12,947 nucleotides of DNA from an uncultured bacterium. GTDB taxonomy: Bacteria; Schekmanbacteria; GWA2-38-11; J061. The notes under the pieces were generated by a model. That model did no database searches, was not told the origin of the DNA, and was given only the letters and a program-made list of their open reading frames with translations. The stretch spans positions 1 through 12,947 of the forward strand of contig CAZJVM010000067.1 of NCBI GenBank assembly GCA_964549305.1, written 5' to 3'. Below, piece by piece: positions 54 to 12,700 of this stretch (positions are counted from its first letter, which is position 1; every line of letters starts with the position of its first letter). The position numbers and the translations under genes were made by a program.

Positions 54-2804
54 ATGAAAATCAGGGGAGCAAGAGTAAATAATCTCAGGAACATTTCCTG
101 CACTGTGCCTGATGGCAAAATAACGGTAATAACGGGTCTTTCCGGTTCGGGGAAATCCTCGCTTGCCTTTGATACCATATTCGCCGAAGGACAACGCCGC
201 TATGTTGACTGTCTTTCGACCTATGCAAGGCAGTTTATCGAGAAGATGAAAAAGCCCGATGTAGATGAAATAACGGGAGTTCAGCCGGCAATCGCTGTTG
301 AGCAGAAAAACACAGTTAGAAATTCCCGTTCGACGGTAGGAAGCTTAAGCGAAATAAATGATTATCTGAAGCTTCTCTTCTCAAGGTGCGGCGTTACGGT
401 TTGTCCACGGTGTAATGTTGAAGCACGGAAGTTTTCTCCTCAAAGTCTCTCCGATTATCTACTTGCCGGTTTCGGGGGCACAAATGCCGTTTCTTTCATT
501 CCGCTATTGTCAAGTGACTTCGAAGACGGCGAAGAGGCGCGCAGACGCATAGAGGAAAAAGGGTTTACGCGTGTTATTGCGGGCGGAAAAGTAGTGTATA
601 TCGATGAGATTGAAGCGGATGCGCTGAAATCAGGCGACATGATATATGTCGTTTCCGACAGGTTTGATATTTGCTTCGGGAAACGAAAGAGAATAGTTGA
701 AAGCATCGAGTCGGCAGAAGTGTTTGAAAGCGATGAGTGGGGAATAATGACGGAAGACTCGAAGGTTAAAATATTTACTTTTGCATTTGCCTGTCCCGAA
801 TGCGGGGAAAAATTTGATAAATTGTCACCGGCGCATTTCTCTTCTAATTCACCGGCAGGTGCCTGCGACTCCTGCCATGGTTTCGGAAGAGTCATTGATT
901 ACGACATTGACAAGATAATTCCCGACAAAACCCTCCCTTTTAACAAAGGTGCCGTCGCGCCGTGGAATTCCCCCGCCTATGAGGAGTTTTACATTCCTTT
1001 AAGGCGTGAATTTTTAAACAAAGGCATTTCATTCTCATCATCCTTCAATGACCTTTCTCCCGAAGACAGAAAACTGCTTATCGACGGCAATGATGATTTT
1101 TGGGGAATAAAGGGGTTTTTCGCCTATCTCGAAGAACGAAGATACAAGATGCATATTCGGGTTTTGCTTTCGAAATACAGAATGTACAGGCGGTGTCCGG
1201 AATGCCGCGGAAGCAGACTGAAGAGAAAATCACTGGAAGTAAAAATTCTCGGGAAAAATATATTTGAGATTCAGACAATGCCGGTACGGACGCTTGGTGA
1301 TTTTTTCAATTCCTCATCATTTGACGGCGAATGCTTCAAATCCGGCGAGGTCGTATTGAGGGAGGTAAGAAGCAGGGTAGGGTATCTTCTCGATGTGGGG
1401 CTTGGATATCTGACTCTTGACAGGCAGGCAAGGACATTGAGCGGTGGAGAGATGCAGAGGATAAACCTGTCAAAAGCTCTTGGCTCCCTTCTTACGGAAA
1501 CCTTGTATGTCCTCGATGAGCCTACGGTAGGACTTCATCCGCGCGATACGGACAAGTTGAAAGGCGTGCTTTCCGCTTTAAGCGGACGAGGTAATACTGT
1601 TGTCATAGTCGAGCACGATGAATCGGTGATAAAAATGGCCGGACATATAATTGACCTTGGTCCAGGCGCAGGTGAAAAGGGAGGCGAGGTTGTTTTTGAG
1701 GGGACTTTCGATGAATTGAAAGAAGATAAAAAATCCGTAACCGCGAAATACATAGATATGCCTCCGTCATTTGCCAGGAGGAATGTGATAAACAAATCGA
1801 AAGAAGCGATTGTCGTGCGGGCAGCGAGGAGAAATAACATCAGGGGAGAGGATTTCAGGGTTCCGCTTGGCAGATTTTCCTGCGTTACGGGAGTTTCAGG
1901 TTCGGGGAAGTCAACATTTATGAAGGGAATACTGTATCCCGCGCTGAAAGCGGTCAAAGAAGGAAAGCCAAACGGTAAAAAACACTGCGCCAAAATTGAT
2001 GGCAGTGAATACATCGATGACGTAATTCTCATTGACCAGTCTCCGCCGGCAAAATCGAAGCGTTCCAATCCCGTGACTTATGTTAAGGCATACAATGAAA
2101 TAAGGAAAATAATGGCGGATTGCAGAGTTGCGCGTATCGAGGGAGTGACGGAAAGCCATTTTTCCTTTAACGCGGGCGAGGGAAGGTGTCCCAGGTGCGC
2201 GGGTTTGGGATTTGAAAGAATCGAGATGCAGTTTCTGGCGGATATCGATATGGTCTGCGAGGAGTGTGAGGGCAGACGTTTTACGAAGAAGGTTTTGTCA
2301 GTAAAATACCGCGGGAAGAATATAGCGGAAATTCTCGATATGACAGTGAGCGAGGCGGAAATATTTTTTGAAGACTCTAAAAAGGTATTAAGGAAACTTT
2401 CGTTTTTATCTGATATGGGACTTGGATATCTTCGTCTTGGGCAGAGGACATCCACACTGAGCGGAGGAGAGGCACAACGCCTTAAACTTGCCGGTATGCT
2501 TGCTGAGCAGAAAAAATCGTCGAAATATCTTTTTCTCTTCGATGAACCCACTACGGGACTTCATATGGCGGACATCGAAAACCTCGTAGTTGTATTCAGA
2601 AGAATGGTCAGTCAGGGACATTCAGTGCTTGCTGTGGAGCATAACCCCGATTTTATTCTTCAGTGCGATTATGTTATAGATATGGGACCAGAAGGAGGCG
2701 ATGGGGGAGGAAAAATTGTGTGCCAGGGAAGCATTGATGATATAATTGTCTGCGGAAGGTCGCATACAGGAAGATATCTTGTGGAAAGGTTGAATTTTTA
2801 CTAA
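54..2804 (+). CDS. uvrA: Excinuclease ABC subunit A (UvrA), probably a second-copy/UvrA2-type paralog
   Basis: 916 aa. N-terminal [12 protein letters not shown], two Walker A motifs ([18 protein letters not shown]), two ABC signatures ([16 protein letters not shown]), Walker B motifs ([22 protein letters not shown]), CxxC zinc modules (CPRC/CPEC, CDSC/CPEC, CPRC/CEEC), EGQRRYV and EMQFL hairpin. AGGAG at 39-43 precedes ATG 54. Confidence 0.97.
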
Positions 2805-2859
2805 CTTTTTTTTAGCTTATGAAACTTGTGTGAAAAGTTATATATTGACTCTGATTGAT

Positions 2860-3879
2860 ATGAGGAATTTTTTAAAAATACAGATAATTGCCGTTATTTT
2901 GCTGATTTTTCCACTCCTGTCAGTATACGCGGAAAACAAAGACGGTTCGAATTCGGGAAAAAAGGTAAACGATACAATAGCGGAACTTCTTACCATAAAT
3001 ATTGACGGCACCGGACTCACGCGACTTACCTTCAACAGTTATTATGAAAACCACGCTCACGTTTCTCCAGACGGGACGAAGATACTTTTTACTGTTTTTA
3101 CGAAAGATACAAACGGCACCGGAGTGGGCGAAGACGATATGAATGCTTCTGAAATAGGAATAATGGATATTGACGGCAGTAATTATACTTTGCTTACAGA
3201 TAATGATTACGCCGATTTCGGCGCGGTGTGGAGTCCTGACGGGGGAAGCATAATATTTTCCACAAACCGTCATAAAAAGCAGTTTGACATTGCTACGATA
3301 AATATCGACGGCAGTGGTTTTACCCGCCTTACTTCCACAAAAAAACGCTATGAAATGGACCCTCACCGGATAGGCGATATAATAGTGTTTACAAAGTGGA
3401 ATCCATACAAAAAATCAAATGTAAAAATCTGGAAAATGAACAGTGACGGAAGCAATAAGAAAAGATTGACGTATCCAAAGTTAAAAAAGACAATCGAGGG
3501 AACACCCCTGGGGGATATGGATCCTAAAATTTCACCTGACGGAACGATGGTCGCTTTTGAAAGGCATAAAAATAACAAGAGAAACCACGGTCTTGGCAAA
3601 TATGATATCTATACAATCAACATTGACGGCACCGGACTCAGGAAAATCACGGGGAGAAAGTCCGCTGAAGCAGTGCCGACCTGGTCGCCTGACGGAAGCA
3701 AGCTGACCTATTGGTCGGTAAACAATAAAACGTTCAATGCGTTCGGAATTTTTATAATTAACACAGACGGCAGTGGACGGGTTAAAATATCCAAGGGGCT
3801 TTTCCCCCTTTACGTGGAAATGCCAAGCTGGATAGATGAAGACACTTTAATCTTCAGCGGAAAATCTCCGGAATGGTAG
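2860..3879 (+). CDS. Secreted TolB-like (PD40-repeat) six-bladed beta-propeller protein
   Basis: Signal-peptide-like N-terminus from ATG 2860 (MRNFLKIQIIAVILLIFPLLSVYA); the ORF track starts at GTG 2830. Repeated (W/V/I)SPDG..I.F motifs and six repeats of type INIDGTGLTRLT, MDIDGSNYTLLT, INIDGSGFTRLT, MNSDGSNKKRLT, INIDGTGLRKIT, INTDGSGRVKIS. No TolB N-terminal domain and no tol-pal neighbours, so not true TolB. Confidence 0.88.
   Translation: MRNFLKIQIIAVILLIFPLLSVYAENKDGSNSGKKVNDTIAELLTINIDGTGLTRLTFNSYYENHAHVSPDGTKILFTVFTKDTNGTGVGEDDMNASEIGIMDIDGSNYTLLTDNDYADFGAVWSPDGGSIIFSTNRHKKQFDIATINIDGSGFTRLTSTKKRYEMDPHRIGDIIVFTKWNPYKKSNVKIWKMNSDGSNKKRLTYPKLKKTIEGTPLGDMDPKISPDGTMVAFERHKNNKRNHGLGKYDIYTINIDGTGLRKITGRKSAEAVPTWSPDGSKLTYWSVNNKTFNAFGIFIINTDGSGRVKISKGLFPLYVEMPSWIDEDTLIFSGKSPEW
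3001..3640 (+). repeat. Intragenic 19-nt exact direct repeat ATTGACGGCACCGGACTCA (3001-3019 and 3622-3640)
   Basis: Read directly; both copies encode IDGTGL in two propeller repeats. Confidence 0.85.
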
Positions 3880-3926: not shown

Positions 3927-4340
3927 ATGAAATCCTATAACGAATACCTTACATTCAATACTGAAAAAAAACTGGAACTTGTGAATATAACCGCGGATGT
4001 TGAAAAAGCGATTCATAAAAGCGCGATTAAGGAAGGTATGGCGCTTGTTTCGGCAATGCACATAACGGCAGGGGTTTTTATAAACGATGAGGAGTCGGGA
4101 ATAAAAAAGGATATAGAGGAATGGCTTCAAAAGCTTGCTCCTGACGGACCCGATTACCGCCATCACAGGACAGGCGAAGTCAACGGAGATTCACATCTTA
4201 AAAGTCTTCTCATCGGAAATCAGGTCATCATACCTGTAACAAACGGCAAAGCGGACTTCGGTCCCTGGCAACAGGTTTTTTACGCGGAGTTTGACGGCAG
4301 GAGAAATAAACGGCTTCTGATAAAAGTAATCGGTGAATGA
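3927..4340 (+). CDS. yjbQ: YjbQ/UPF0047 family protein (secondary thiamine-phosphate synthase enzyme)
   Basis: 137 aa with NIT..V, MHITAGVFINDEE, YRHH..GE.NGDSHLKS, GPWQQVFYAEFDGRR motifs typical of UPF0047. Purine-rich RBS (GGGAAGGGG) upstream. Confidence 0.95.
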   Translation: MKSYNEYLTFNTEKKLELVNITADVEKAIHKSAIKEGMALVSAMHITAGVFINDEESGIKKDIEEWLQKLAPDGPDYRHHRTGEVNGDSHLKSLLIGNQVIIPVTNGKADFGPWQQVFYAEFDGRRNKRLLIKVIGE

Positions 4341-4347
4341 TGTTTTT

Positions 4348-4941
4348 CTACTTATTGGTCAATGCGGCATAGATTGCCCTGGCGAAATCCTTTGAAGCAT
4401 AAGGTCCGTCGGCAGTGATGATATTTCCGTCAACGACTACCGGTTTGTCAACATACCTGGCTTTTCCTTTTTTAAGAAATATTGTGGCGCTGTTAAACAC
4501 TGTTGCCGATTTTCCCTTGAGAATCCCCGCATTGGCAAGTGTAACGGGGGCAAGGCATATTGCGGCAATGATTTTTTTTGAGCTGTTTGCTTCCCTCGCA
4601 AAGGCGTACACTCTCTTATCGCTGTAGTATTGGCTTGCGCCTATTCCTCCTACAAGGATTAGAGCGTCATATTTTTTCATATCAACTTCATCGATTGTTA
4701 TGTCCGGAGTTACCTCTTTGCCGAACATTCCCCGCGCCGTGGATTTTGAACTGCAGGCAACAGTAACGGAAATACCCTTTGACTCAAGGAATTCTCTGGG
4801 GACAAACAGTTCTTCGTCACGGAAATTATTTTGGGCGATAATCATTACTACGGCAAGTTTTTGCTCCTGCGCGAAAGAAAAGGGAATTACAAATGTGGAA
4901 AAAATAATCAGAAAGGCAAGGAGAAGTATCATCTTTTTCAT
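4348..4941 (-). CDS. DJ-1/PfpI (ThiJ) family protein with N-terminal signal peptide
   Basis: 197 aa. NFRDEE (conserved Glu), YDALILVGG.GA, nucleophile elbow IAAICLAPVTLANAGILKGKSAT, VVVDGNIITADGP. N-terminus MKKMILLLAFLIIFSTFVIPFSFA-QEQ is Sec-like. SD AAGGAG upstream. Confidence 0.93.
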   Translation of the reverse strand: MKKMILLLAFLIIFSTFVIPFSFAQEQKLAVVMIIAQNNFRDEELFVPREFLESKGISVTVACSSKSTARGMFGKEVTPDITIDEVDMKKYDALILVGGIGASQYYSDKRVYAFAREANSSKKIIAAICLAPVTLANAGILKGKSATVFNSATIFLKKGKARYVDKPVVVDGNIITADGPYASKDFARAIYAALTNK

Positions 4942-5004: not shown

Positions 5005-5898
5005 TTATAGTTCATCGAGATAATCTTCAAGAGTTTTAAATGAGAAACTGAATATATTTGCAGGGGTTTCTCCGGAAACCTGATTTTTTTCATCGAGCAT
5101 TATCAACTGCTCTCTCGTAAGAAGCGGTGCGGGCATTGTGAACTCCGAGAGGAGTGCGGCGATTCCTGCCGCAAGGCGAGGCATTGGAAAAATCAATCTT
5201 TTGAATTTCATTTTTGCGCATATCGTGTTCAACAATTCCGCCTGCGAATAAACCTTTCCTCCTCCAAGTTCGATTGTTTTGCCGTCACTTGCACCGTTAT
5301 CTATTGATTCGATAAAGCATCTTGCCACATCGCCTGCCCATACAGGTTCGAGAGTACCTTTCCCAATTGCAGGGAAAAAAGGAGAGAATTTAAGAATTTT
5401 AACGAATAAATTTATGAATTTATCTTCCCTGCCAAAAACAACGGAAGGCCTGAAAATTGTATATTTCAAGCCGGTATTTCTTAAATATTCTTCCGCCTTC
5501 CATTTTGTAATCTGGTAGCGAGTTTTGCCGTTTTCCCTTACTCCCAGTGCGCTCATTTGAATGAATTTTTCCACTCCCGATGATTTTGCCGCGTCGATGA
5601 TGTTTTTTGCTCCTTTGTAATGAATATTTTCAAATGTTACATTTTTCCTCTCTGCAATGATTCCCACAAGATTGATTACTGTTTTTTCTCCCCTTATGGC
5701 ATTCCAGAGGGTTTCCTTTTTTGTAATATCTCCACCGATAAAGGAGCATTGCTCAAAGGGGAGAAGGGATTTCGCCTTTAACGGGTCTCTTACAAGACAG
5801 GTGAAGGAATATCCTTGTTTTATGCCTTCTGAGACTATACACCTGCCTATGAAACCCGTTGCCCCCGTTATGAATATCTTTCTTCCCTTTTCAGACAT
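5005..5898 (-). CDS. NAD(P)-binding atypical SDR, complex I NDUFA9-like / NAD-dependent epimerase family
   Basis: 297 aa. IFITGATGFIG Rossmann motif, VINLVGII.E, F..IH..GA.NII.AAK..GV..FIQMSALG, YQITK (YxxxK), YTIFRPSVVFG, PV..GDVA. SD GAGG upstream. Confidence 0.92.
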   Translation of the reverse strand: MSEKGRKIFITGATGFIGRCIVSEGIKQGYSFTCLVRDPLKAKSLLPFEQCSFIGGDITKKETLWNAIRGEKTVINLVGIIAERKNVTFENIHYKGAKNIIDAAKSSGVEKFIQMSALGVRENGKTRYQITKWKAEEYLRNTGLKYTIFRPSVVFGREDKFINLFVKILKFSPFFPAIGKGTLEPVWAGDVARCFIESIDNGASDGKTIELGGGKVYSQAELLNTICAKMKFKRLIFPMPRLAAGIAALLSEFTMPAPLLTREQLIMLDEKNQVSGETPANIFSFSFKTLEDYLDEL

Positions 5899-6026: not shown

Positions 6027-6719
6027 ATGAGCGAAAAGATAATCGACCAGATTTTCAAGAAGGTCTCTCAGGTTACAAATCTCGAATTGATAGAGGAATA
6101 TAAAGACCTTGAAAGCTTTAAAGCGCTTGACGGCAGGGATGCCGGAAGTTTCAGGGGATATAAAAGCGATAAAATAGATAAATACTCCATTGCCGAAATT
6201 AATGTGGCGCCCGGAATGACCTATTTCAACACGGGACTGAAACCAAAAACCAATTACAATATCTCCACATTTGCCATTAACTATATGGAGATGCCGGAAA
6301 TTATCCAGTTTGATGTGGACCTCTATCCGGCAGTTGACCTTGTAGAGCATCAGGATTACATTGACAAATACTATGAGCAGTTGACGGATGTTTTTTTGGA
6401 GGCCAGAAATTCCGGGGATTTCAAGTGGAAACCTTCCGATTATTCGTGGGTGAGAGTCCGCACATCGCCTTATTTCTTTATGTCACCCATTGCCAGGGAC
6501 AAGGCGGAAGAGGTGCATAAACTGATTCACGCGTATCTCGATGTATGGCTTCAGATGTTTCAGGAAGAGAAACCCGTTTCCGATGACCGGGCGAAAGCAA
6601 TCGCGTACAGAAAAAAATGTATGGTCGAGGTTATGCGCGAAAAAGAGCCCGATAAAACGGTTATTCAAAAAGTATTCGGCAACGAGTTAACTGAAAAACT
6701 TGCTCACGCTATGATGTAG
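6027..6719 (+). CDS. Ferredoxin-dependent bilin reductase (FDBR; HY2/PebAB/PcyA/RCCR)-fold protein, copy 1
   Basis: 230 aa, the size expected for the family. Motifs in FDBR order: KSDKIDK, P...YNISTFAIN (cf. P...YDLP.FG.D), DVDLYPAVDLVEHQDYIDKYYEQL (cf. HY2/RCCR LDL.P.....DY...YY), WVR..TSPYF, AYLDVWLQM, REKEP...IQKVFG (cf. (E/K)DP...L...FG). Reference motifs recalled from memory. Confidence 0.8.
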   Translation: MSEKIIDQIFKKVSQVTNLELIEEYKDLESFKALDGRDAGSFRGYKSDKIDKYSIAEINVAPGMTYFNTGLKPKTNYNISTFAINYMEMPEIIQFDVDLYPAVDLVEHQDYIDKYYEQLTDVFLEARNSGDFKWKPSDYSWVRVRTSPYFFMSPIARDKAEEVHKLIHAYLDVWLQMFQEEKPVSDDRAKAIAYRKKCMVEVMREKEPDKTVIQKVFGNELTEKLAHAMM

Positions 6720-7341
6720 CGCCTTCAAGGGTTTTGCTTTTCTTCCACAGAAAATAGCATCCGATTGCCCAGATTATTCTCGATGATACATTGAGAGTCT
6801 GCTCGAGGAAAACCGCGTAGTTTGAAGTAAAGTCAAACTGCCTGCCTATGTAACCGAGACTGAATGTCATTAGTATATCGAGGATAAAGAATATTGTTGC
6901 GCCTGTTGCTTTTCTGCGTATTGACAGGAGAATCAGGCATATTGTCATCCCCAGACCCGCGAGTATCATCATTGGAAGAAAAATCTTTTTTGAAGAAGCC
7001 ATTCCGACAGCATTTAACTTTGTCATTTCTCCTCCGCCCTTTTTCAGAAGCACCATAAGAAGAACGAAAAAGATGATTAAGAAACCGATGCCCATTAGGG
7101 GAAACTGCACATCCGAAAGTATTCTGATGTCTTTATCTACAAGAGCAATCAGGAGTTTCCACGTTGCCTTGAGCGTGCCTGCCGTTACCACAAATACGGA
7201 TGCGACTATCATTGCAATATAATAACCGTTGTTTATTTCCTTCCTTATGCTGGCGATTATGAAATATATTCCAATGATGAAAACTATATTCGGGAGATAG
7301 TCATAAAGGGCAACTCCCAAAGAAACATCCGGTGCGCTCAT
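6709..7341 (-). CDS. Hypothetical integral membrane protein (~7 TM helices)
   Basis: 210 aa with about seven hydrophobic segments and polar residues in or next to them (DYLP, GTLKATWK, QFP, EQTLN). SD TAAGGAG overlaps the upstream stop, 9-nt gap to the preceding gene. Confidence 0.8.
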   Translation of the reverse strand: MSAPDVSLGVALYDYLPNIVFIIGIYFIIASIRKEINNGYYIAMIVASVFVVTAGTLKATWKLLIALVDKDIRILSDVQFPLMGIGFLIIFFVLLMVLLKKGGGEMTKLNAVGMASSKKIFLPMMILAGLGMTICLILLSIRRKATGATIFFILDILMTFSLGYIGRQFDFTSNYAVFLEQTLNVSSRIIWAIGCYFLWKKSKTLEGATS

Positions 7342-7350
7342 TTTTTCTCC

Positions 7351-8043
7351 TTATTTAAAAAGGTAAGGCAGTATTGAGTATTTTGCCGCGATGACTCCCC
7401 CTATATCCTGCAGAAAATGAAGTATGGCAAGTGGCCACATACTCCGTGTTTTGCGGTAGATTACGAGGTAGCCTATTGTTATGGGATATTGGAGAAACAT
7501 AAATATCTGGAAATAGGGAGATACCGGTTCCATCCCGAGAAGAAACTTTGTCCAGAAAATGACGTGAATGAGTCCTATGAATCCCCAGAAGAAAATGAGC
7601 CCAAGTCCGTGTCCTAAAATTTTGGTCCATTTTCCCTCGAAGCGGTTTGCAAAGGCATCATATATATAAACCCAGATTAACTGCTCTGTGAAAGCATTTA
7701 CAGTACACCAGACGAGAAGCGTGAATGCGAAACCTCCGAAAGTCGTTTCTTCTTCAGGTGTCAGCGGTGTAATGTATGCCGCGGAGGCAATCAGTATCAT
7801 CATAAGAACAAAGAGAAATACAAAAAGCGGAGTAATCAGCTTTTCCGGGAAGTTGTAATCGACGGTACCTCTTCGCCATTTTACCACGCCCCAGCAGATG
7901 CCGTAGTAGACGAGAATAGGAAGCAGTGCGCCCGATAAATCATAAAGCCCCTTGCACAAAAAAGGCAGTCCCGCGGTGATTGCAACAGCCAGAACAATAT
8001 CCAGATTTGTCGCTTTGAAATCAACTCCCGATACTTTTGCCAT
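7351..8043 (-). CDS. CPBP (CAAX protease/Abi, type II)-like intramembrane protein with degenerate motif 1
   Basis: 230 aa, multi-TM. NAFTEQLIWV at the position of EExxxR, FIGLIH at motif FxxxH, YRKTRSMWPLAILHFLQD at motif S.W..I..HxxxN/D. SD GGAGG upstream. Confidence 0.72.
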   Translation of the reverse strand: MAKVSGVDFKATNLDIVLAVAITAGLPFLCKGLYDLSGALLPILVYYGICWGVVKWRRGTVDYNFPEKLITPLFVFLFVLMMILIASAAYITPLTPEEETTFGGFAFTLLVWCTVNAFTEQLIWVYIYDAFANRFEGKWTKILGHGLGLIFFWGFIGLIHVIFWTKFLLGMEPVSPYFQIFMFLQYPITIGYLVIYRKTRSMWPLAILHFLQDIGGVIAAKYSILPYLFK

Positions 8044-8064: not shown

Positions 8065-8772
8065 TTATATCATAGCGTCGGTGATTCTCTGAATGATGTT
8101 TTTATCTTCGAGGATTTTGTCAAAATATCTCGCTTTTCCCGGGTCGCCTTCCGCGGTGACTTTTCTTATCATTGATTTCCGTTTTTTAATGAGCCCGATT
8201 TCCGCTTTATCCGCAACAGGTGCTGAAGACTTATACAAATCAAGCCAGAGAAGCAGTCTTTTAAAACTCAGGTTTACGAAATCTTCGCAATCAGATTCGG
8301 GGCAAAGTCCTTTAACCCAGTAGGGCGACCTCATTGTCCTTGACCAGAAGAAGTCCGACTCAAGTGGTATTACCTGTTCAAAGGCGAGAAATTCGTCATA
8401 TGTTGCCTTGAGGGGCGTATAGTATTTGTCAAGGTAATCGTAATTTAAAACAGGGTCTTTTGTGCCGTAAAAATCAACATCCATATTTATGCCTTTGGGC
8501 GTTGAACTCAGGTTGCAGGCAAAGATGGGAATATCGTAATTATCCGCGGGTATGATGCTTATGCCGTTTATCTCAGCGCCGCTCATAGTGTAATTGCCGT
8601 AGGCAATCTTTTCGATTTTGTCCGATTTGAAATGCTTTACCTGACCGCTCAGAACAACCTCGCCGTTTTTTCCCTTTGCCTTGAAGTCCGTCAAATCCTC
8701 AAAAGGAAATATTTCCCCGACAGTCAACTCCTTACCGATTTCCTTAAATAACTTATCAAGATAATGTTTCAT
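8065..8772 (-). CDS. Ferredoxin-dependent bilin reductase (FDBR; HY2/PebAB/PcyA/RCCR)-fold protein, copy 2
   Basis: 235 aa. KSDKIEK, IIPADNYDIPIFACNL, DVDFYGTKDPVLNYDYLDKYYTPL, WSR.MRSPYW, LLLWLDLY, AEGDPG (cf. HY2/PebB (E/K)DP(G/A)). Colinear with 6027..6719. SD AGGGAG upstream. Confidence 0.82.
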   Translation of the reverse strand: MKHYLDKLFKEIGKELTVGEIFPFEDLTDFKAKGKNGEVVLSGQVKHFKSDKIEKIAYGNYTMSGAEINGISIIPADNYDIPIFACNLSSTPKGINMDVDFYGTKDPVLNYDYLDKYYTPLKATYDEFLAFEQVIPLESDFFWSRTMRSPYWVKGLCPESDCEDFVNLSFKRLLLWLDLYKSSAPVADKAEIGLIKKRKSMIRKVTAEGDPGKARYFDKILEDKNIIQRITDAMI

Positions 8773-8798: not shown

Positions 8799-10052
8799 TT
8801 AAAAAGAATCCTTCAGCGACATCTCATCGAGTTTTTCGATTTTTTTAAATAAATCCGGACGTTCGCTTTTTATTTTATCCTTCTTCTCAAGAAACGCGCC
8901 CCAAATGAGCTCGGGGGTCTTGTATTGGCTGAAAGTGCCGGGGAATATCCTGTCCTCTGCAAGGGAGAAAAGGTAGTCTATCTCATCATCGGTATATGTG
9001 GGAATCAGCGCGTATCCCTGTGCCACACGAAGGAATTTGTCTGAATTGAATTCAAATTCGGACATCCACCATTTTTCGTAATCGCCGAACCCGTTTTTGC
9101 CTTCAAATTCATCCATAACCGCTTTCGCGCCTCTGTATCCGCACATCATAGCGCCCTGAGTCTCCACTTCCACATAAGATGCGGCATCGCCGAGCGCGAT
9201 AGCATTGCCTTTGTATGGTTTTTTTAGAGATGTAAAAACTTTTATGGAACAACCCGTTTTCCTTACGATTGACGCGTTTTCAAAAATATTGGAAAGACGG
9301 CTTTTTTTTGTAAAACTTTCAAAGCTCTGGGCGTCACATACTAACTCCGTCACATCATCTTCGAGACCTATTCCCATAAAAACCGGAACATTGGAGAAAT
9401 AGTTTCTGCCGAAATGTCCTATCCACGAAGCATTGACATAATCCTTTACGCCTTTAAGCTCGTAAATCGTGGAAAGCGCTGTTGCAAAATACTTTCTCTC
9501 TTTGTTCAGTCCCAGAGTCTCGGAAATAATGGAATTAGCGCCGTCTGCAATGATTATTTTTTTGGCTTTTACCGTTTCTCTTTTTCTGTGTGATACAGTC
9601 TTTATTTCAACTTCGCTGCCGGAGTCTTTTGCGCCGTATGCAACCGTCTTATCTCTCATCTCAACGCCAAGGGAAGAGCACTCTTGCCATAAACTTTTTA
9701 AAAGTGCGCCCTTGTCAAATTTAAAGACTATTGGCTTCTTTGTCTCGGTATTTGAAAATGTGAGTTTGTGTCCCGATGGTGATATATAGAATTTGTCATA
9801 AACAGGTTTTATGATTCCGTTGTAGTGGACTCTGAATCCGTTTTCCGGAAAAATGAACTCACCCTTTTCGTAGTTTACGCTTTCCCCCATATATCCTTCA
9901 TCGAGGATAAGGTGCATACAACAGCAACGGGTGATGTTTCCTACATCGGCGCGTTTTTCGACGAGAATCGTCTTTACGCCCTTTGAGGCAAGCTCTCTGC
10001 CTGCGATTAATCCGGCGGGACCTCCGCCTATGATTGCAACATCATAAATCAT
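8799..10052 (-). CDS. FAD-dependent oxidoreductase, geranylgeranyl reductase/FixC family, copy B
   Basis: 417 aa. YDVAIIGGGPAG..A dinucleotide motif, LVEK, RC (here RCCC), IIIADGANS, LGDAAS, C-terminal TDDEIDYLF. Paralog of 10392..11666. Confidence 0.9.
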   Translation of the reverse strand: MIYDVAIIGGGPAGLIAGRELASKGVKTILVEKRADVGNITRCCCMHLILDEGYMGESVNYEKGEFIFPENGFRVHYNGIIKPVYDKFYISPSGHKLTFSNTETKKPIVFKFDKGALLKSLWQECSSLGVEMRDKTVAYGAKDSGSEVEIKTVSHRKRETVKAKKIIIADGANSIISETLGLNKERKYFATALSTIYELKGVKDYVNASWIGHFGRNYFSNVPVFMGIGLEDDVTELVCDAQSFESFTKKSRLSNIFENASIVRKTGCSIKVFTSLKKPYKGNAIALGDAASYVEVETQGAMMCGYRGAKAVMDEFEGKNGFGDYEKWWMSEFEFNSDKFLRVAQGYALIPTYTDDEIDYLFSLAEDRIFPGTFSQYKTPELIWGAFLEKKDKIKSERPDLFKKIEKLDEMSLKDSF

Positions 10053-10086
10053 ATTTCTGACCTGATAAACGGGATGTGCGCGTTAC

Positions 10087-10187
10087 GGCGAAATTCAAGA
10101 GATTTCGTCCGGAAGAAATAAAAAAATAGGGGTCGTTAAAGACAAAACGAATTTTGATTTCGGTTCCTCCCCCCTGCCTTTCCGGCA
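10087..10187 (-). promoter_or_regulatory. Structured intra-operon spacer: hairpins plus U-tract (partial terminator, attenuator or processing site)
   Basis: Inverted repeats at 10175-10187 (TGCC-N5-GGCA), 10133-10150 (TCGTT-N8-AACGA, extendable by AGGGG 10128-10132 / CCCCT 10171-10175) and 10089-10107 (CGAAAT-N7-ATTTCG). The A7 run at 10120-10126 is a U-tract on the mRNA just after the middle stem. Confidence 0.45.
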
Positions 10188-10209
10188 TTTAATAGAGCTA
10201 TATTTTTTC

Positions 10210-10380
10210 CTATTGCGAAATTGCTTTAACGGGGCACATATCTATGCAGGCGAGACATTCGATGCACGTTTCCTCGTCAATAACCGCGTTGTTTTCTTCC
10301 AGTTCAAGGGCGCCCTGAGTGCATGCGTCGATACAGCATCCGCAGGCGATACAGGTTTCATTATCTATCGTGATTGCCAT
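10210..10380 (-). CDS. 2[4Fe-4S] bacterial (clostridial-type) ferredoxin, 56 aa; absent from the ORF track
   Basis: Translated by hand: MAITIDNETCIACGCCIDACTQGALELEENNAVIDEETCIECLACIDMCPVKAISQ*. Two CxxCxxCxxxC motifs, acidic composition, SD AAGGA upstream, starts 11 nt after the stop of 10392..11666. Confidence 0.96.
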   Translation of the reverse strand: MAITIDNETCIACGCCIDACTQGALELEENNAVIDEETCIECLACIDMCPVKAISQ

Positions 10381-10391
10381 AATTTTATCCT

Positions 10392-11666
10392 TTAAAAAGT
10401 GCCTTTCAGAGTTACGCTGCTTCTTTTTTCGATTTTCGCGTAAAGCTCGGGTTTTTCCTTCTTAATTCTTTCGGGGTCCTGAAGGAATGCTTCCCACATA
10501 AGCTTAGGAGTTTTATATTGGCTGTAGGTTCCGGGCAATTCCATTGTCGAACCCAAAGCGAAGAGATAATCGAGCTCTTCGTCGGTGTATGTGGGAATAA
10601 GGGCATACCCCTGAGCAACCTGAAGAAAGTCCTCACCGTTAAATTCAAAGGACTCGAGCCACCATTTCGTGTATTCTTCAAAACCGTTTTTACCTTCGAA
10701 TTCATCTGCAAGCGCTTCGACTGCCCTGTACGCGCACATAAAAGCACCCTGAGTTTCAACTTCCACATATGCCGCTGAATCCGCGATTGCTATGAAGTTT
10801 CCTTTATAGGGTTTTTTCATTCCGGTGTATGCTTTTGCGGAGCATCCCGTTGAGCGGACGACCTTCGCTTTTTTAAAATCATCCGCAAGTCTTCCCTTTG
10901 TCATAAAATTTTTGCAGATTTCGGAGGGATAACAATTCTTTCCGCCCAAAGCCACGATTTCGACTATGCCTTCCTCGAGGGTTATTCCCATAAGTACCGC
11001 GGCATTGGAATAATAAGTCCTTCCGAAATGGCCTATCCACGACGCTTCGGGAAAATTCTCTACACCTTCGATTTCGAAAATCATTGCAAGTCCCGTGGCG
11101 AAATATGTCCTTCCTTCATTGAGACCAATTGCCTCTGAAATTCTCGAATTCACGCCGTCTGCTATTATCGCTTTCTTTGCCGTGATTTTGTCGTGTTTTT
11201 TCTTGCTTACGATATCTATTTCCACGCTGTTGCCAAGGTCTCTCGCGTTATATGCCGATGTTTCTCCCAGGAGAGTTACTCCTTTATTCGCGCATTCATT
11301 CCACAGGTCTTTTAAAAGAAGTCCCTTGTCAAACCTGTATGATATCGGTTTTCCGGTTTTTCTGTTTTGAAAGGTTAACTCGTTGCCTGAAGGCGAGCGA
11401 TAGATTTTTGTATTTACCGGTTTGATTTTTCCTTTGTAATCAACTTCAAAACCGGTTTTCGGAAATAACATTTTACCGTCTTTGTATTGAGCGTCATCTC
11501 CCATATATCCTTCGTCGAGGATAAAATTCATACAGCAACAGCGGGTAATTGTCTCAACATCTTTTCTTTTTTCAACGAGGACTGTCTTCAATCCCTTTTC
11601 AGCCGCCCGTTTTGCGGCCATAAGTCCCGCCGGTCCGGCGCCTATTATAGCAACATCGTAACTCAT
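10392..11666 (-). CDS. FAD-dependent oxidoreductase, geranylgeranyl reductase/FixC family, copy A
   Basis: 424 aa. YDVAIIGAGPAGLMAA, LVEK, ITRCCC, IIADGVNS, IADSAA (variant of GDAA), TDEELDYLF. ATGA overlap with the amidohydrolase stop (11663-11666) and SD AAGGAG. Confidence 0.9.
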   Translation of the reverse strand: MSYDVAIIGAGPAGLMAAKRAAEKGLKTVLVEKRKDVETITRCCCMNFILDEGYMGDDAQYKDGKMLFPKTGFEVDYKGKIKPVNTKIYRSPSGNELTFQNRKTGKPISYRFDKGLLLKDLWNECANKGVTLLGETSAYNARDLGNSVEIDIVSKKKHDKITAKKAIIADGVNSRISEAIGLNEGRTYFATGLAMIFEIEGVENFPEASWIGHFGRTYYSNAAVLMGITLEEGIVEIVALGGKNCYPSEICKNFMTKGRLADDFKKAKVVRSTGCSAKAYTGMKKPYKGNFIAIADSAAYVEVETQGAFMCAYRAVEALADEFEGKNGFEEYTKWWLESFEFNGEDFLQVAQGYALIPTYTDEELDYLFALGSTMELPGTYSQYKTPKLMWEAFLQDPERIKKEKPELYAKIEKRSSVTLKGTF

Positions 11667-12700
11667 TTCTTCTCCTTGTTTTTAGCCGCCTGTTTGTCCC
11701 TCCAGTCACCGCAGTAGAAATTATAAGCATTGTCAAAAAGAAGCATTTTCTTGAATTGCGGTGAAATGGGAAGAAGTTTAATGTACTCGAGAGCGGTTTT
11801 GTAAATGGGTAAAATCAGGGGAGAATCAGTGCCAAAAAATACTTTATGAGGAACAATCTGCTCTAACATTCTTATATGGTCAAGGTTCATATAATAGTTG
11901 AATTGCATCAGCATTGGATGAGGCACGGTTATGTCGGTGTATACATTCGGATGCCTGATTACATTCCATATGGCAAGTCTCGGATTGTTCATCGCTCCGC
12001 AGTGAAGCTGAAGTATTCTTAAATCCGGGAAATCCACCGCAACATCATCGATGTAAACGGGGTCCTGATACTTCGCCCTTGTGCCGGGAATTTCTTCCAC
12101 TCCCGTATGGATTTCAACGTGAAGTCCCAGTTCCACGCATTTTTCGTAAATGGGATAGCATCTTTCCCTGTCATTCGGATATCCCGCCGTAGGCGTGTGA
12201 ATCTTTACTCCCTTGAATCCAAGTTCTTTTGCCTTGTGCACTGTTTCGATCTTTTGGCTCAACTCAGCTTTCGGATTCACTCCGGCGGTCCCAACATACC
12301 GGTTCGGGTATTTGTCGAGGAATTCCTCCTTTACATATTCCATAGGCACGTGCCAGTAATCATTGTAGGGCGGGTCTGAAATGGTGTCCATTCCCGTTAC
12401 CAGCGCCATTTGGACACCGGCATCATTGAAAATATTAATCATCGTTTCGACGCTGAAGTCAGGGATGTCTTCAACCTTTGTGATCGGTTTCACGGGGTCA
12501 GGGTCTCCGAGCATAACGCGAAGCGCCATCTGAGTCTGTGAAGTTACACCGTCTCTTGCCATCCAAAGGCGACTGCAACCGGGTCTTTTCTCGATGTCTT
12601 TTTTCTCGAATCCCGCGTGTGTGTGGCTGTCAAAAACCTTTAATCCCATCTTCGGCGGGGGTTGTACATTCCCATCTACAGGCGAATTGCTGTTCGGCAT
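11663..12700 (-). CDS. Amidohydrolase_2 family metal-dependent TIM-barrel protein
   Basis: 345 aa. FDSHTH (HxH), KYPNRYVG, GFKGVKIH, YPIYEKC.ELGL.VEIHTG, DDVAVDFPDLRI..LHCG, HPNVYTDI, KVFFGTDSP, L.DNA. SD AAAGGAG upstream. Confidence 0.94.
   Translation of the reverse strand: MPNSNSPVDGNVQPPPKMGLKVFDSHTHAGFEKKDIEKRPGCSRLWMARDGVTSQTQMALRVMLGDPDPVKPITKVEDIPDFSVETMINIFNDAGVQMALVTGMDTISDPPYNDYWHVPMEYVKEEFLDKYPNRYVGTAGVNPKAELSQKIETVHKAKELGFKGVKIHTPTAGYPNDRERCYPIYEKCVELGLHVEIHTGVEEIPGTRAKYQDPVYIDDVAVDFPDLRILQLHCGAMNNPRLAIWNVIRHPNVYTDITVPHPMLMQFNYYMNLDHIRMLEQIVPHKVFFGTDSPLILPIYKTALEYIKLLPISPQFKKMLLFDNAYNFYCGDWRDKQAAKNKEKK

Follow-up and report, generated by a model that had tools for sequence, protein, structure and literature searches.

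A paralogous pair of FDBR/RCCR-fold proteins in a Schekmanbacteria contig and its possible part in ferredoxin-dependent tetrapyrrole reduction

Contig CAZJVM010000067.1 of an uncultured Schekmanbacteria bacterium, analyzed here as one stretch of 12,947 nt (the window), encodes a protein, called A below, whose predicted structure places it in the superfamily of ferredoxin-dependent bilin reductases (FDBRs) and red chlorophyll catabolite reductases (RCCRs), together with a paralog, called B. We tentatively read A as an enzyme that would reduce a linear tetrapyrrole in a ferredoxin-dependent manner, would act through a distal aspartate, Asp210, and would probably be paired with B. We hold this reading with somewhat less than even confidence; the substrate class, the electron donor and the role of Asp210 are inferred, and the pairing comes from structure modeling. 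The two genes lie as follows.

8065..8772, minus strand: A, FDBR/RCCR-fold protein, 235 residues (open reading frame [ORF] call)
6027..6719, plus strand: B, FDBR/RCCR-fold paralog, 230 residues (Pfam Fe_bilin_red, 56.7 bits, cutoff 31)

A confident AlphaFold2 (AF2) model, the structural neighbors of that model and profile matches to known structures together argue that A belongs to the FDBR/RCCR superfamily, with RCCR and the PebB/HY2 branch as its nearest neighbors and without belonging to either. The model, built on a 58-sequence profile (A2), has a mean predicted local distance difference test score (pLDDT) of 92.6 and a predicted TM-score (pTM) of 0.90. It shows the alpha/beta/alpha sandwich that defines the fold, in which the central sheet is antiparallel and the C-terminal helices lie over the pocket, and query TM-scores (TMq) of 0.76-0.82 in Foldseek bear out the FDBR fold proposed in an earlier reading of this DNA from its letters only (the sequence-only reading). 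Against PDB chains, TMq was 0.81-0.82 for tomato HY2, 0.76-0.81 for RCCR, 0.76-0.78 for the PEBB of G. theta (GtPEBB), 0.76 for PebA, 0.70-0.77 for PcyA and 0.58-0.65 for PebS, and RCCR was the top match by E-value (2.2e-11). HemF was only a distant neighbor (TMq 0.45, E 7e-3). Among the PDB matches listed for the model at E ≤ 0.001, all 45 were either tetrapyrrole FDBR or RCCR structures or a PcyA-like subunit of the plastid motor complex. A second profile, made from close relatives of A only (A1), matched HY2 (E 1.3e-6), PEBB (2.1e-6), RCCR (2.7e-4) and, marginally, PebA (0.62) in the PDB, and no PcyA was matched at E ≤ 1. The best single-sequence PDB match of A was a PEBB chain (3.5e-5), and its ten best named atlas clusters were all Fe_bilin_red. 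At the level of named enzymes, among the NCBIfam PebB and PebA equivalogs, A scored 29.7 against a PebB cutoff of 327 (NF009723), 18.8 against 283 for NF009722 and 17.1 against 263 for NF009720, and the NCBIfam PcyA equivalog gave no match to A. With a best score of 29.7 against 327 and a nearest outsider at 30% identity, A nests in no characterized FDBR clade, as the sequence-only reading had suggested.

A is a genuine gene under strong constraint, because nine more proteins, each of exactly 235 residues, share 61-81% identity with it over their full length in a database search, and because a GGGAG Shine-Dalgarno motif stands in the DNA 7 nt 5' of its ATG. The translated ORF holds GISIIPADNYDIPIFACN, DYLDKYY and EGDPG. 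In the alignment of this ten-member clade (A included), 96 of 235 columns are invariant, among them N69, G70, S72, N87, D98, D100, R145, R148, S149, P150, Y151 and R203, and the loop E208-G209-D210-P211-G212 is the same in all ten sequences, to all of which precomputed database annotation assigns PF05996.18. The named relatives of the clade come from metagenome-assembled genomes (MAGs) of Candidatus (Ca.) Schekmanbacteria, the nearest to A being P0004 (76% identical), and the closest match outside the clade was only 30% identical in a search of 1.84 billion representatives. Searches of genome contigs, run with the single A protein and with the clade alignment, recovered no locus. Seven giant proteins (P0022, P0023, P0027, P0032, P0044, P0045 and P0056; 1,182-5,311 residues) match approximately residues 36-113 of A, each in 8-15 separate stretches at 27-44% identity, which could be a repeated beta-hairpin module like the FDBR sheet or a compositional artifact.

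Active-site positions were mapped in three alignments, namely A2 against PDB chains, A1 against tomato HY2, GtPEBB and RCCR, and an 88-sequence MAFFT alignment anchored on the PcyA of phage P-SSM4. Three codons of A are central to the argument (AtHY2 is the Arabidopsis enzyme).

8563..8565, minus strand: codon of Gly70, at the position of PcyA His88 and AtHY2 Asp116, invariant in 10 of 10 clade members
8512..8514, minus strand: codon AAC of Asn87, at the position of PcyA Asp105, GtPEBB Asp-99 and AtHY2 Asn133
8143..8145, minus strand: codon GAC of Asp210 within EGDPG, at the position of AtHY2 Asp256 and GtPEBB Asp-219, invariant in 10 of 10 clade members

The three alignments concur in placing Gly70 at the His of PcyA HCV(L/M)FP and the corresponding Asp of HY2; Asn87 at the Asp of PcyA FGCD(I/L), the Asn of HY2 PIFCAN, the GtPEBB Asp and the RCCR Glu; and Asp210 at the Asp of (K/R)DP in HY2, PebB and PebA. 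By eye, the sequence-only reading had matched a Gly to the His88 position and an Asn to the Asp105 position and had seen the Asp of the C-terminal DPG preserved, and all three assignments hold. On the RCCR side, the Glu of FVVEL aligns with Asn87 and the second Asp of EDDLD with Asp210; these two residues may be the catalytic Glu154 on the sheet and Asp291 on the C-terminal helix, which flank the substrate of RCCR, assuming an offset in the numbering. In the AF2 model Asp210 falls exactly where helix 189-209 breaks off and helix 211-216 begins, which matches the distal Asp-219 of GtPEBB, borne on a short loop between two distal helices (PMC6755814). A distal Asp is described as essential in A-ring reducers (PMC6755814; Table 2 of PMC13446030), and this hallmark is present in A as Asp210.

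The central position is where A departs from most of the family. The GtPEBB paper describes a central Asp that all FDBRs depend on apart from the HY2 of vascular plants (PMC6755814). In that enzyme Asp116, which stands at the His88 position, makes up for a central Asn (PMC6755814; Table 2 of PMC13446030). That table, in Frascogna et al. 2026, gives AtHY2 as Asp116 at the His88 position and Asn133 at the Asp105 position, plus Asp256, and the PDB chain of tomato HY2 carries DLPIFCANFF, EDYKEKYY and SEKDPGHG, so that the features which the sequence-only reading had ascribed to HY2 (the Asn of PIFCAN, a segment like DY.DKYY and the Asp of KDPG) are confirmed. Its claim of an HY2-like pattern in A was right in part: the central Asn and the distal Asp stand, and the compensating Asp116 and the conserved Arg do not, being Gly70 and Thr206 in A. 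HY2 in mosses and ferns retains the Asp pair (PMC6755814), and for this reason the Asn of A is convergent with that of HY2 and no shared ancestral state.

Asn occupies the central position in all ten A-clade rows and all 33 B-clade rows of the 88-sequence alignment; among 43 other relatives, the residue is Asp or Glu in 29 and Asn in five, one of them a B-like fragment and another spurious. The B clade also has a distal Glu in 33 of 33 rows and Asn at the His88 position in 31 of 33, and the patterns at the His88, Asp105 and distal positions are thus Gly/Asn/Asp in A and Asn/Asn/Glu in B. Two pre-PcyA variants with a neutralized central acid, Pre-1 E91Q and Pre-2 D91N, still convert biliverdin to phytochromobilin (section 2.4 of PMC13446030), and the pattern of Pre-2 D91N, Asn/Asn/Asp (Table 2 of the same paper), is close to those of A and B. 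By analogy with these active variants, a natural central Asn would be no bar to A-ring reduction that the distal acid drives.

B, which is 29% identical to A (E 9e-27), was missed by the sequence-only reading, as were the ferredoxin, the two flavoproteins and the amidohydrolase described below. Its gene converges on the operon that contains A and at its 3' end shares 11 nt with the last gene there. The AF2 model of B has a pLDDT of 86.6 and is closest in Foldseek to HY2 (E 2.3e-11), RCCR and PebB. Thirty-six relatives of B were found, including proteins from Ca. Schekmanbacteria and Deltaproteobacteria MAGs, and the nearest named one is P0014 (D6734_10340; 47% identical), from Ca. Schekmanbacteria. 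No relatives of B or of flavoprotein 1 were found in the plasmid collection searched.

Complex prediction supports the pairing of A and B with each other. With the A-clade and B-clade alignments as input, the predicted complex scored 0.78 (median of three runs) against 0.00 for the best control, a score that was attained in the benchmark by 116 of 157 solved complexes and by two of 215 mismatched pairs. The runs agreed in at least 98% of contacts, with a partner pLDDT of at least 90, and the predicted interface is pseudo-symmetric, formed by residues 106-122, 142-151 and 197-205 of A and 104-123, 136-149 and 194-202 of B.

The operon of A runs on the minus strand in the order amidohydrolase, flavoprotein 2, ferredoxin, flavoprotein 1, A, a CPBP-like membrane protein and a 210-residue membrane protein. 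Its members other than A are listed here.

11663..12700, minus strand: Amidohydrolase_2 protein, 345 residues, first operon gene (Pfam PF04909, 116.3 bits); overlaps flavoprotein 2 by 4 nt
10392..11666, minus strand: flavoprotein 2, 424 residues, 57% identical to flavoprotein 1; 11-nt gap to the ferredoxin ORF
10210..10380, minus strand: 2x[4Fe-4S] ferredoxin, 56 residues (Pfam Fer4, 50.6 bits in two stretches; Fer4_10, 43.4)
8799..10052, minus strand: flavoprotein 1, geranylgeranyl-reductase-like, 417 residues (Pfam FAD_binding_3, 63.5 bits); 26 nt upstream of A
7351..8043, minus strand: membrane protein, weakly CPBP/Rce1-like, 230 residues (Rce1-like, 20.0 bits, cutoff 22.4); 21 nt downstream of A
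6709..7341, minus strand: membrane protein, 210 residues, last operon gene; 9-nt gap from the CPBP-like protein

The claim that A is operon-encoded is borne out by the flanking gaps of 26 and 21 nt and by the Shine-Dalgarno motifs, with GGAGG standing 5 nt ahead of the ATG of the CPBP-like membrane protein. The sole long gap in the operon is that between the ferredoxin gene and flavoprotein 1 (157 nt, positions 10053-10209), which could hold an internal promoter or a regulatory RNA. No RNA family was found in the window by Rfam, and a scan of the window gave 25 promoter-like sites against 14.3 expected and nine terminator-like sites against 7.6 expected, which is not decisive. A 48-residue ORF (10042-10188, minus strand) with no Pfam match also lies in the gap.

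The ferredoxin ORF came to light once the minimum ORF size was lowered to 25 residues, and distant relatives of A link such a protein to the family. Ferredoxin-FDBR fusions were found in three of 44 scanned relatives (P0016, P0030 and P0052; 272-327 residues, approximately 30% identical to A), in which an N-terminal 2x[4Fe-4S] domain is joined through a low-complexity linker to an FDBR-like domain. The 44 are what was left of 56 representative matches once seven giant repeat proteins, four fragments and the sequence that represents the A clade itself had been set aside. The operon ferredoxin is 29% identical to the fused domains of P0016 and P0030 (pairwise E 3e-8 and 3e-10), and because the fused domains are of the same type, this Rosetta-stone link supports a ferredoxin as the probable partner of this part of the superfamily. 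Our literature search found no description of fusions between ferredoxin domains and bilin reductases.

The best PDB match of flavoprotein 1 is the geranylgeranyl reductase (GGR) 3oz2 (E 2.4e-8), and the GG-red-SF model TIGR02032 gave 87.8 bits for flavoprotein 1 and 65.8 for flavoprotein 2, under its cutoff of 158.8. The catalytic motif of GGRs is PxxYxWxFP, together with a conserved single Cys near the FAD (PMC10821996). Both flavoproteins have GxGxxG and, in place of the single catalytic Cys, a Cys triplet at residues 43-45 (TRCCCM), and lack PxxYxWxFP, so that neither the cutoff nor the motif marks them as GGRs, and their family appears to be uncharacterized. Among PDB structures, the amidohydrolase matches the uncharacterized BB4693 (2.6e-11) and a LigW-type 5-carboxyvanillate decarboxylase (3.4e-6), with ACMSD-type decarboxylases also near. 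The 210-residue membrane protein has no Pfam or NCBIfam match; in the atlas it lies closest to clusters of unnamed Bacillota proteins, with DUF6962 at a score of 0.92.

In the mechanism that we propose for A, two electrons and two protons would be added to a C=C bond of biliverdin or another ring-opened tetrapyrrole, held in a pocket with the central beta-sheet on one side and the C-terminal helices on the other. A 2x[4Fe-4S] ferredoxin, for which the operon-encoded protein is a plausible candidate, would supply the electrons singly, and protons would pass through the distal Asp210, placed in the helix-helix loop like Asp256 of HY2, Asp-219 of PebB and Asp206 of PebS. Asn87, standing where the usual central acid is absent, may merely form a hydrogen bond to the substrate. 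As a pseudo-symmetric pair, A and B might carry out sequential two-electron steps in the manner of PebA and PebB, or one might be catalytic and the other auxiliary.

Several observations weigh against A as a tetrapyrrole reductase. Of three hallmarks that mark A-ring reducers, A has the distal Asp alone: it lacks the central acid of FDBRs (Asn87), the HY2 Asp116 position is Gly70 so that no acid stands at either place, and the position of GtPEBB Arg-215 and HY2 Arg252 is Thr206, or Val or Ile in three of the ten clade members. This Arg, four residues ahead of the distal Asp, is reported as strictly conserved in PebB and HY2 and essential (PMC6755814). The invariant Arg203, one helical turn ahead of the Arg-215 position in sequence, might replace it. 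The Pfam scores of A fall under the gathering cutoffs for both Fe_bilin_red (PF05996; 27.4 bits, cutoff 31) and RCC_reductase (PF06405; 20.1 bits, cutoff 24.9). In the 12 large ORFs of the window, Pfam showed no domain of a heme oxygenase, a bilin-binding globin, a V4R protein or a phytochrome, a result that agrees with the non-photosynthetic setting assumed in the sequence-only reading and also means that the partner domains of pre-PcyA clusters are absent from these ORFs. Section 7 of Rockwell et al. 2023 (PMC10151467) lists those partners as heme oxygenase, a BBAG globin, a V4R pair and an Fe-S protein for Pre-1 as well as Pre-3, and a globin with a B12-binding protein for Pre-2. The ferredoxin may serve the flavoproteins rather than A, because its gene sits between theirs and because the GGR of M. 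acetivorans requires a ferredoxin encoded at its own locus (PMC10821996). The A-B complex may have scored well through likeness to a solved homodimer. RCCR has been described as a homodimer, a point for which the literature search found no supporting text.

The association of A, B and the flavoproteins is, moreover, weakly conserved, being seen in the closest relatives only. Synteny was judged by equating contigs of the same base count across the match lists of A, B and the flavoproteins, which is a crude and indirect measure. By it, A, B and flavoprotein 1 all have homologs on a 39,282-base contig (P0002, P0068 and P0101, respectively), a 4,105-base contig carries homologs of A and B, and a 4,548-base contig homologs of A and a flavoprotein. 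The A homologs on contigs of 516,472, 11,194 and 8,241 bases are accompanied by no B match and by none of the best 120 of 405 flavoprotein matches, and the remaining three A-homolog contigs are shorter than 2 kb.

Some of these facts would suit a different assignment, in which A is a degenerate and non-catalytic FDBR-fold subunit that binds B and serves as scaffold, substrate carrier or ferredoxin-docking partner. The missing acids at the Asp105 and His88/Asp116 positions, the missing Arg-215 equivalent, a Pfam score under gathering where that of B is over it, the long stem of the A clade (1.19 substitutions per site), its narrow membership (ten, against 36 relatives of B that are mostly on contigs with no A match) and the complex prediction itself (0.78 against 0.00) all fit this assignment. 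We nevertheless consider it unlikely, as 96 invariant positions of 235, including N87, D210 and the EGDPG loop, speak more for a working site than for a relic, B shares the central Asn and is thus no more canonical than A, and most B contigs (approximately 1-5 kb) are too short for A to be called absent from them. Another alternative, and a rather doubtful one in our judgment, is that the substrate is no bilin at all but, for example, a polyene, a prenylated aromatic or a quinone-like compound, in a pathway set by the flavoproteins, the ferredoxin and the amidohydrolase, one of whose intermediates A and B would reduce or bind. Nothing ties five of the operon's seven genes (the amidohydrolase near LigW and ACMSD, the two flavoproteins and the two membrane proteins) to bilins, the window contains neither a heme oxygenase nor a bilin-binding protein, and the central acid is missing from A and B alike. 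The flavoprotein family, with 405 matches, extends to Clostridia, in which no FDBR link is known. The placement of the ferredoxin between the flavoprotein genes, along with the described dependence of a GGR on a locus ferredoxin (PMC10821996), points the same way. Set against this, every structural neighbor of known ligand, the distant HemF included, binds a tetrapyrrole; the distal Asp of DPG, like the SPY segment, is common to HY2, PebB and RCCR and invariant in the A clade; and the flavoproteins lack PxxYxWxFP, so that a prenyl substrate is not indicated.

That A might be a true bacterial phytochromobilin synthase related to plant HY2 by descent seems highly improbable. HY2 gave the best A1 match in the PDB (1.3e-6) and the highest TMq (0.82), and the two proteins have PIF(A/C)(C/A)N, DY.(D/E)KYY and DPG in common. 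However, their identity is 16-18%, the Asp116 position is Gly and the Arg252 position Thr, PEBB and RCCR score nearly as well, the central Asn arose within the HY2 of vascular plants with moss and fern enzymes keeping Asp (PMC6755814), and published trees place Schekmanbacteria sequences with the RCCR outgroup (PMC10151467). We therefore retain, as a tentative assignment, the ferredoxin-dependent reduction of a linear tetrapyrrole by A with its distal Asp210, probably in a pair with B.

Phylogenetic analysis depicts the A clade as a long, isolated branch. In a maximum likelihood (ML) tree of 81 rows, from which seven odd or partial rows of the 88 had been dropped and in which the only reference FDBRs were the phage P-SSM4 PcyA and the S-PRM1 FDBR, A was monophyletic (SH-aLRT 100), with a stem 1.19 substitutions per site long. 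B was monophyletic with support of 95-100 across trees (95 in the 81-row tree). A was not sister to B in the 81-row tree, with support of only 47 for the placement of A, and a single clade of A and B was not rejected in a 54-row test (approximately unbiased [AU] p 0.066). The sequence-only reading had proposed a deep-branching lineage, an idea that was not new: in section 5 of their 2023 paper (PMC10151467), Rockwell et al. describe Ca. Schekmanbacteria sequences as lying 'in between FDBRs and RCCRs' and state that these 'clearly fall within the outgroup'. Two uncharacterized FDBR clades of unstable placement were later reported by Frascogna et al. 2026 in FEBS J (PMC13193486), whose Table S1 has a query 'Unknown D6734_12105' that matches Galdieria PEBA at 2e-13. 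This protein has the same MAG prefix as P0014 (D6734_10340), and on sequence grounds Schekmanbacteria genomes may encode at least three distinct FDBR-fold proteins. The match of D6734_12105 to PEBA at 2e-13 is far stronger than that of A to the PEBB chain at 3.5e-5.

The lineage has thus already been noticed in print, yet is uncharacterized. Our literature search for Schekmanbacteria and bilin reductases turned up Rockwell et al. 2023 alone, and the search, which did not extend to the supplement of that paper, found no account of the active site, the paralog pair or the operon of the A lineage. For bilin reductases clustered with geranylgeranyl reductases, two broad reviews were the only papers to turn up. 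A search of phage sequences with P0048 gave no match.

The rest of the window holds the following genes.

5005..5898, minus strand: NDUFA9-like NAD(P)H-binding short-chain dehydrogenase/reductase (SDR), matching the 39-kDa subunit of complex I at E 1.6e-28
54..2804, plus strand: UvrA-like ABC ATPase, 916 residues, with UvrA DNA-binding and interaction domains (Pfam)
2830..3879, plus strand: PD40 beta-propeller protein with an N-terminal hydrophobic segment (ORF, Pfam)
3927..4340, plus strand: UPF0047 (YjbQ-like) protein (ORF, Pfam)
4348..4941, minus strand: DJ-1/PfpI protein with an apparent signal peptide (ORF, Pfam)

The SDR gene is divergent from that of B, with 128 nt between them. It was considered as a possible biliverdin-reductase-B-like or anaerobilin-reductase-like enzyme and rejected, since its match to BLVRB (7e-10) is far weaker than that to NDUFA9 (1.6e-28). 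The UvrA-like gene, probably a UvrA paralog or one with a housekeeping role, is not related to A, and no link to the operon was seen for the PD40, UPF0047 and DJ-1/PfpI genes.

Research on FDBRs traces how bilin biosynthesis arose before cyanobacteria, and the Discussion of PMC13446030 voices the wish to find an 'archae-FDBR'. The locus gives a lineage that had been noticed a testable shape, consisting of two paralogs with a predicted complex, a natural central Asn in both members, the distal Asp of A and an operon ferredoxin. If the pair reduces a bilin, catalysis without an acid at the central site would occur naturally in bacteria too, besides the HY2 of vascular plants, and there would be a defined enzyme near the RCCR/FDBR split; if the substrate is not a tetrapyrrole, this would be the first such use of the FDBR/RCCR fold. 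In its boldest form, which we regard as improbable, A and B would make up a heterodimeric, ferredoxin-driven reductase in an undescribed anaerobic pathway that reduces or dismantles a ring-opened tetrapyrrole in a non-photosynthetic bacterium, working with the operon ferredoxin, two GGR-like flavoprotein C=C reductases and the decarboxylase-type amidohydrolase, and would represent an 'archae-FDBR' linking RCCR to PebB/HY2.

Among known systems, A and B can be set beside the Schekmanbacteria sequences of Rockwell et al. 2023 and D6734_12105, which come from the same candidate phylum as their nearest named relatives (P0004 and P0014) and probably represent the same or sister lineages; in the published text found, those proteins appear without function, active-site analysis or gene context. 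The pre-PcyAs (Pre-1 to Pre-3) resemble A in having the FDBR fold, in coming from heterotrophic bacteria and in lacking His88, with Asn or Thr in its place, and differ in having Asp or Glu at the central position and in branching with PcyA, whereas A1 finds no PcyA at E ≤ 1.

RCCR (2ZXK, 3AGA) is like A as its top Foldseek match, in the segment DL..N.DYL..YY and in the (V)SP motif, and trees in PMC10151467 group Schekmanbacteria sequences with it. It is unlike A in having Glu at the Asn87 position and in acting on a chlorophyll catabolite in plastids. PebB, represented by GtPEBB (6QWQ, 6QX6), shares the fold with A at TMq 0.76-0.78, gives its best single-sequence match (3.5e-5) and has its distal Asp-219 retained as Asp210, whereas its essential Asp-99 and Arg-215 (PMC6755814) are replaced by Asn87 and Thr206. 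HY2 (tomato 6KMD and 6KME, and Arabidopsis) is a plastid enzyme of photosynthetic eukaryotes with 16-18% identity to A, and its Asp116 and Arg252 correspond to Gly70 and Thr206. It is nonetheless like A in fold (TMq 0.81-0.82), as the best A1 match, in the central Asn and in a distal Asp carried by a DPG loop, and the two proteins read alike in short strings, with PIFCAN in HY2 for PIFACN in A and DY.EKYY for DYLDKYY.

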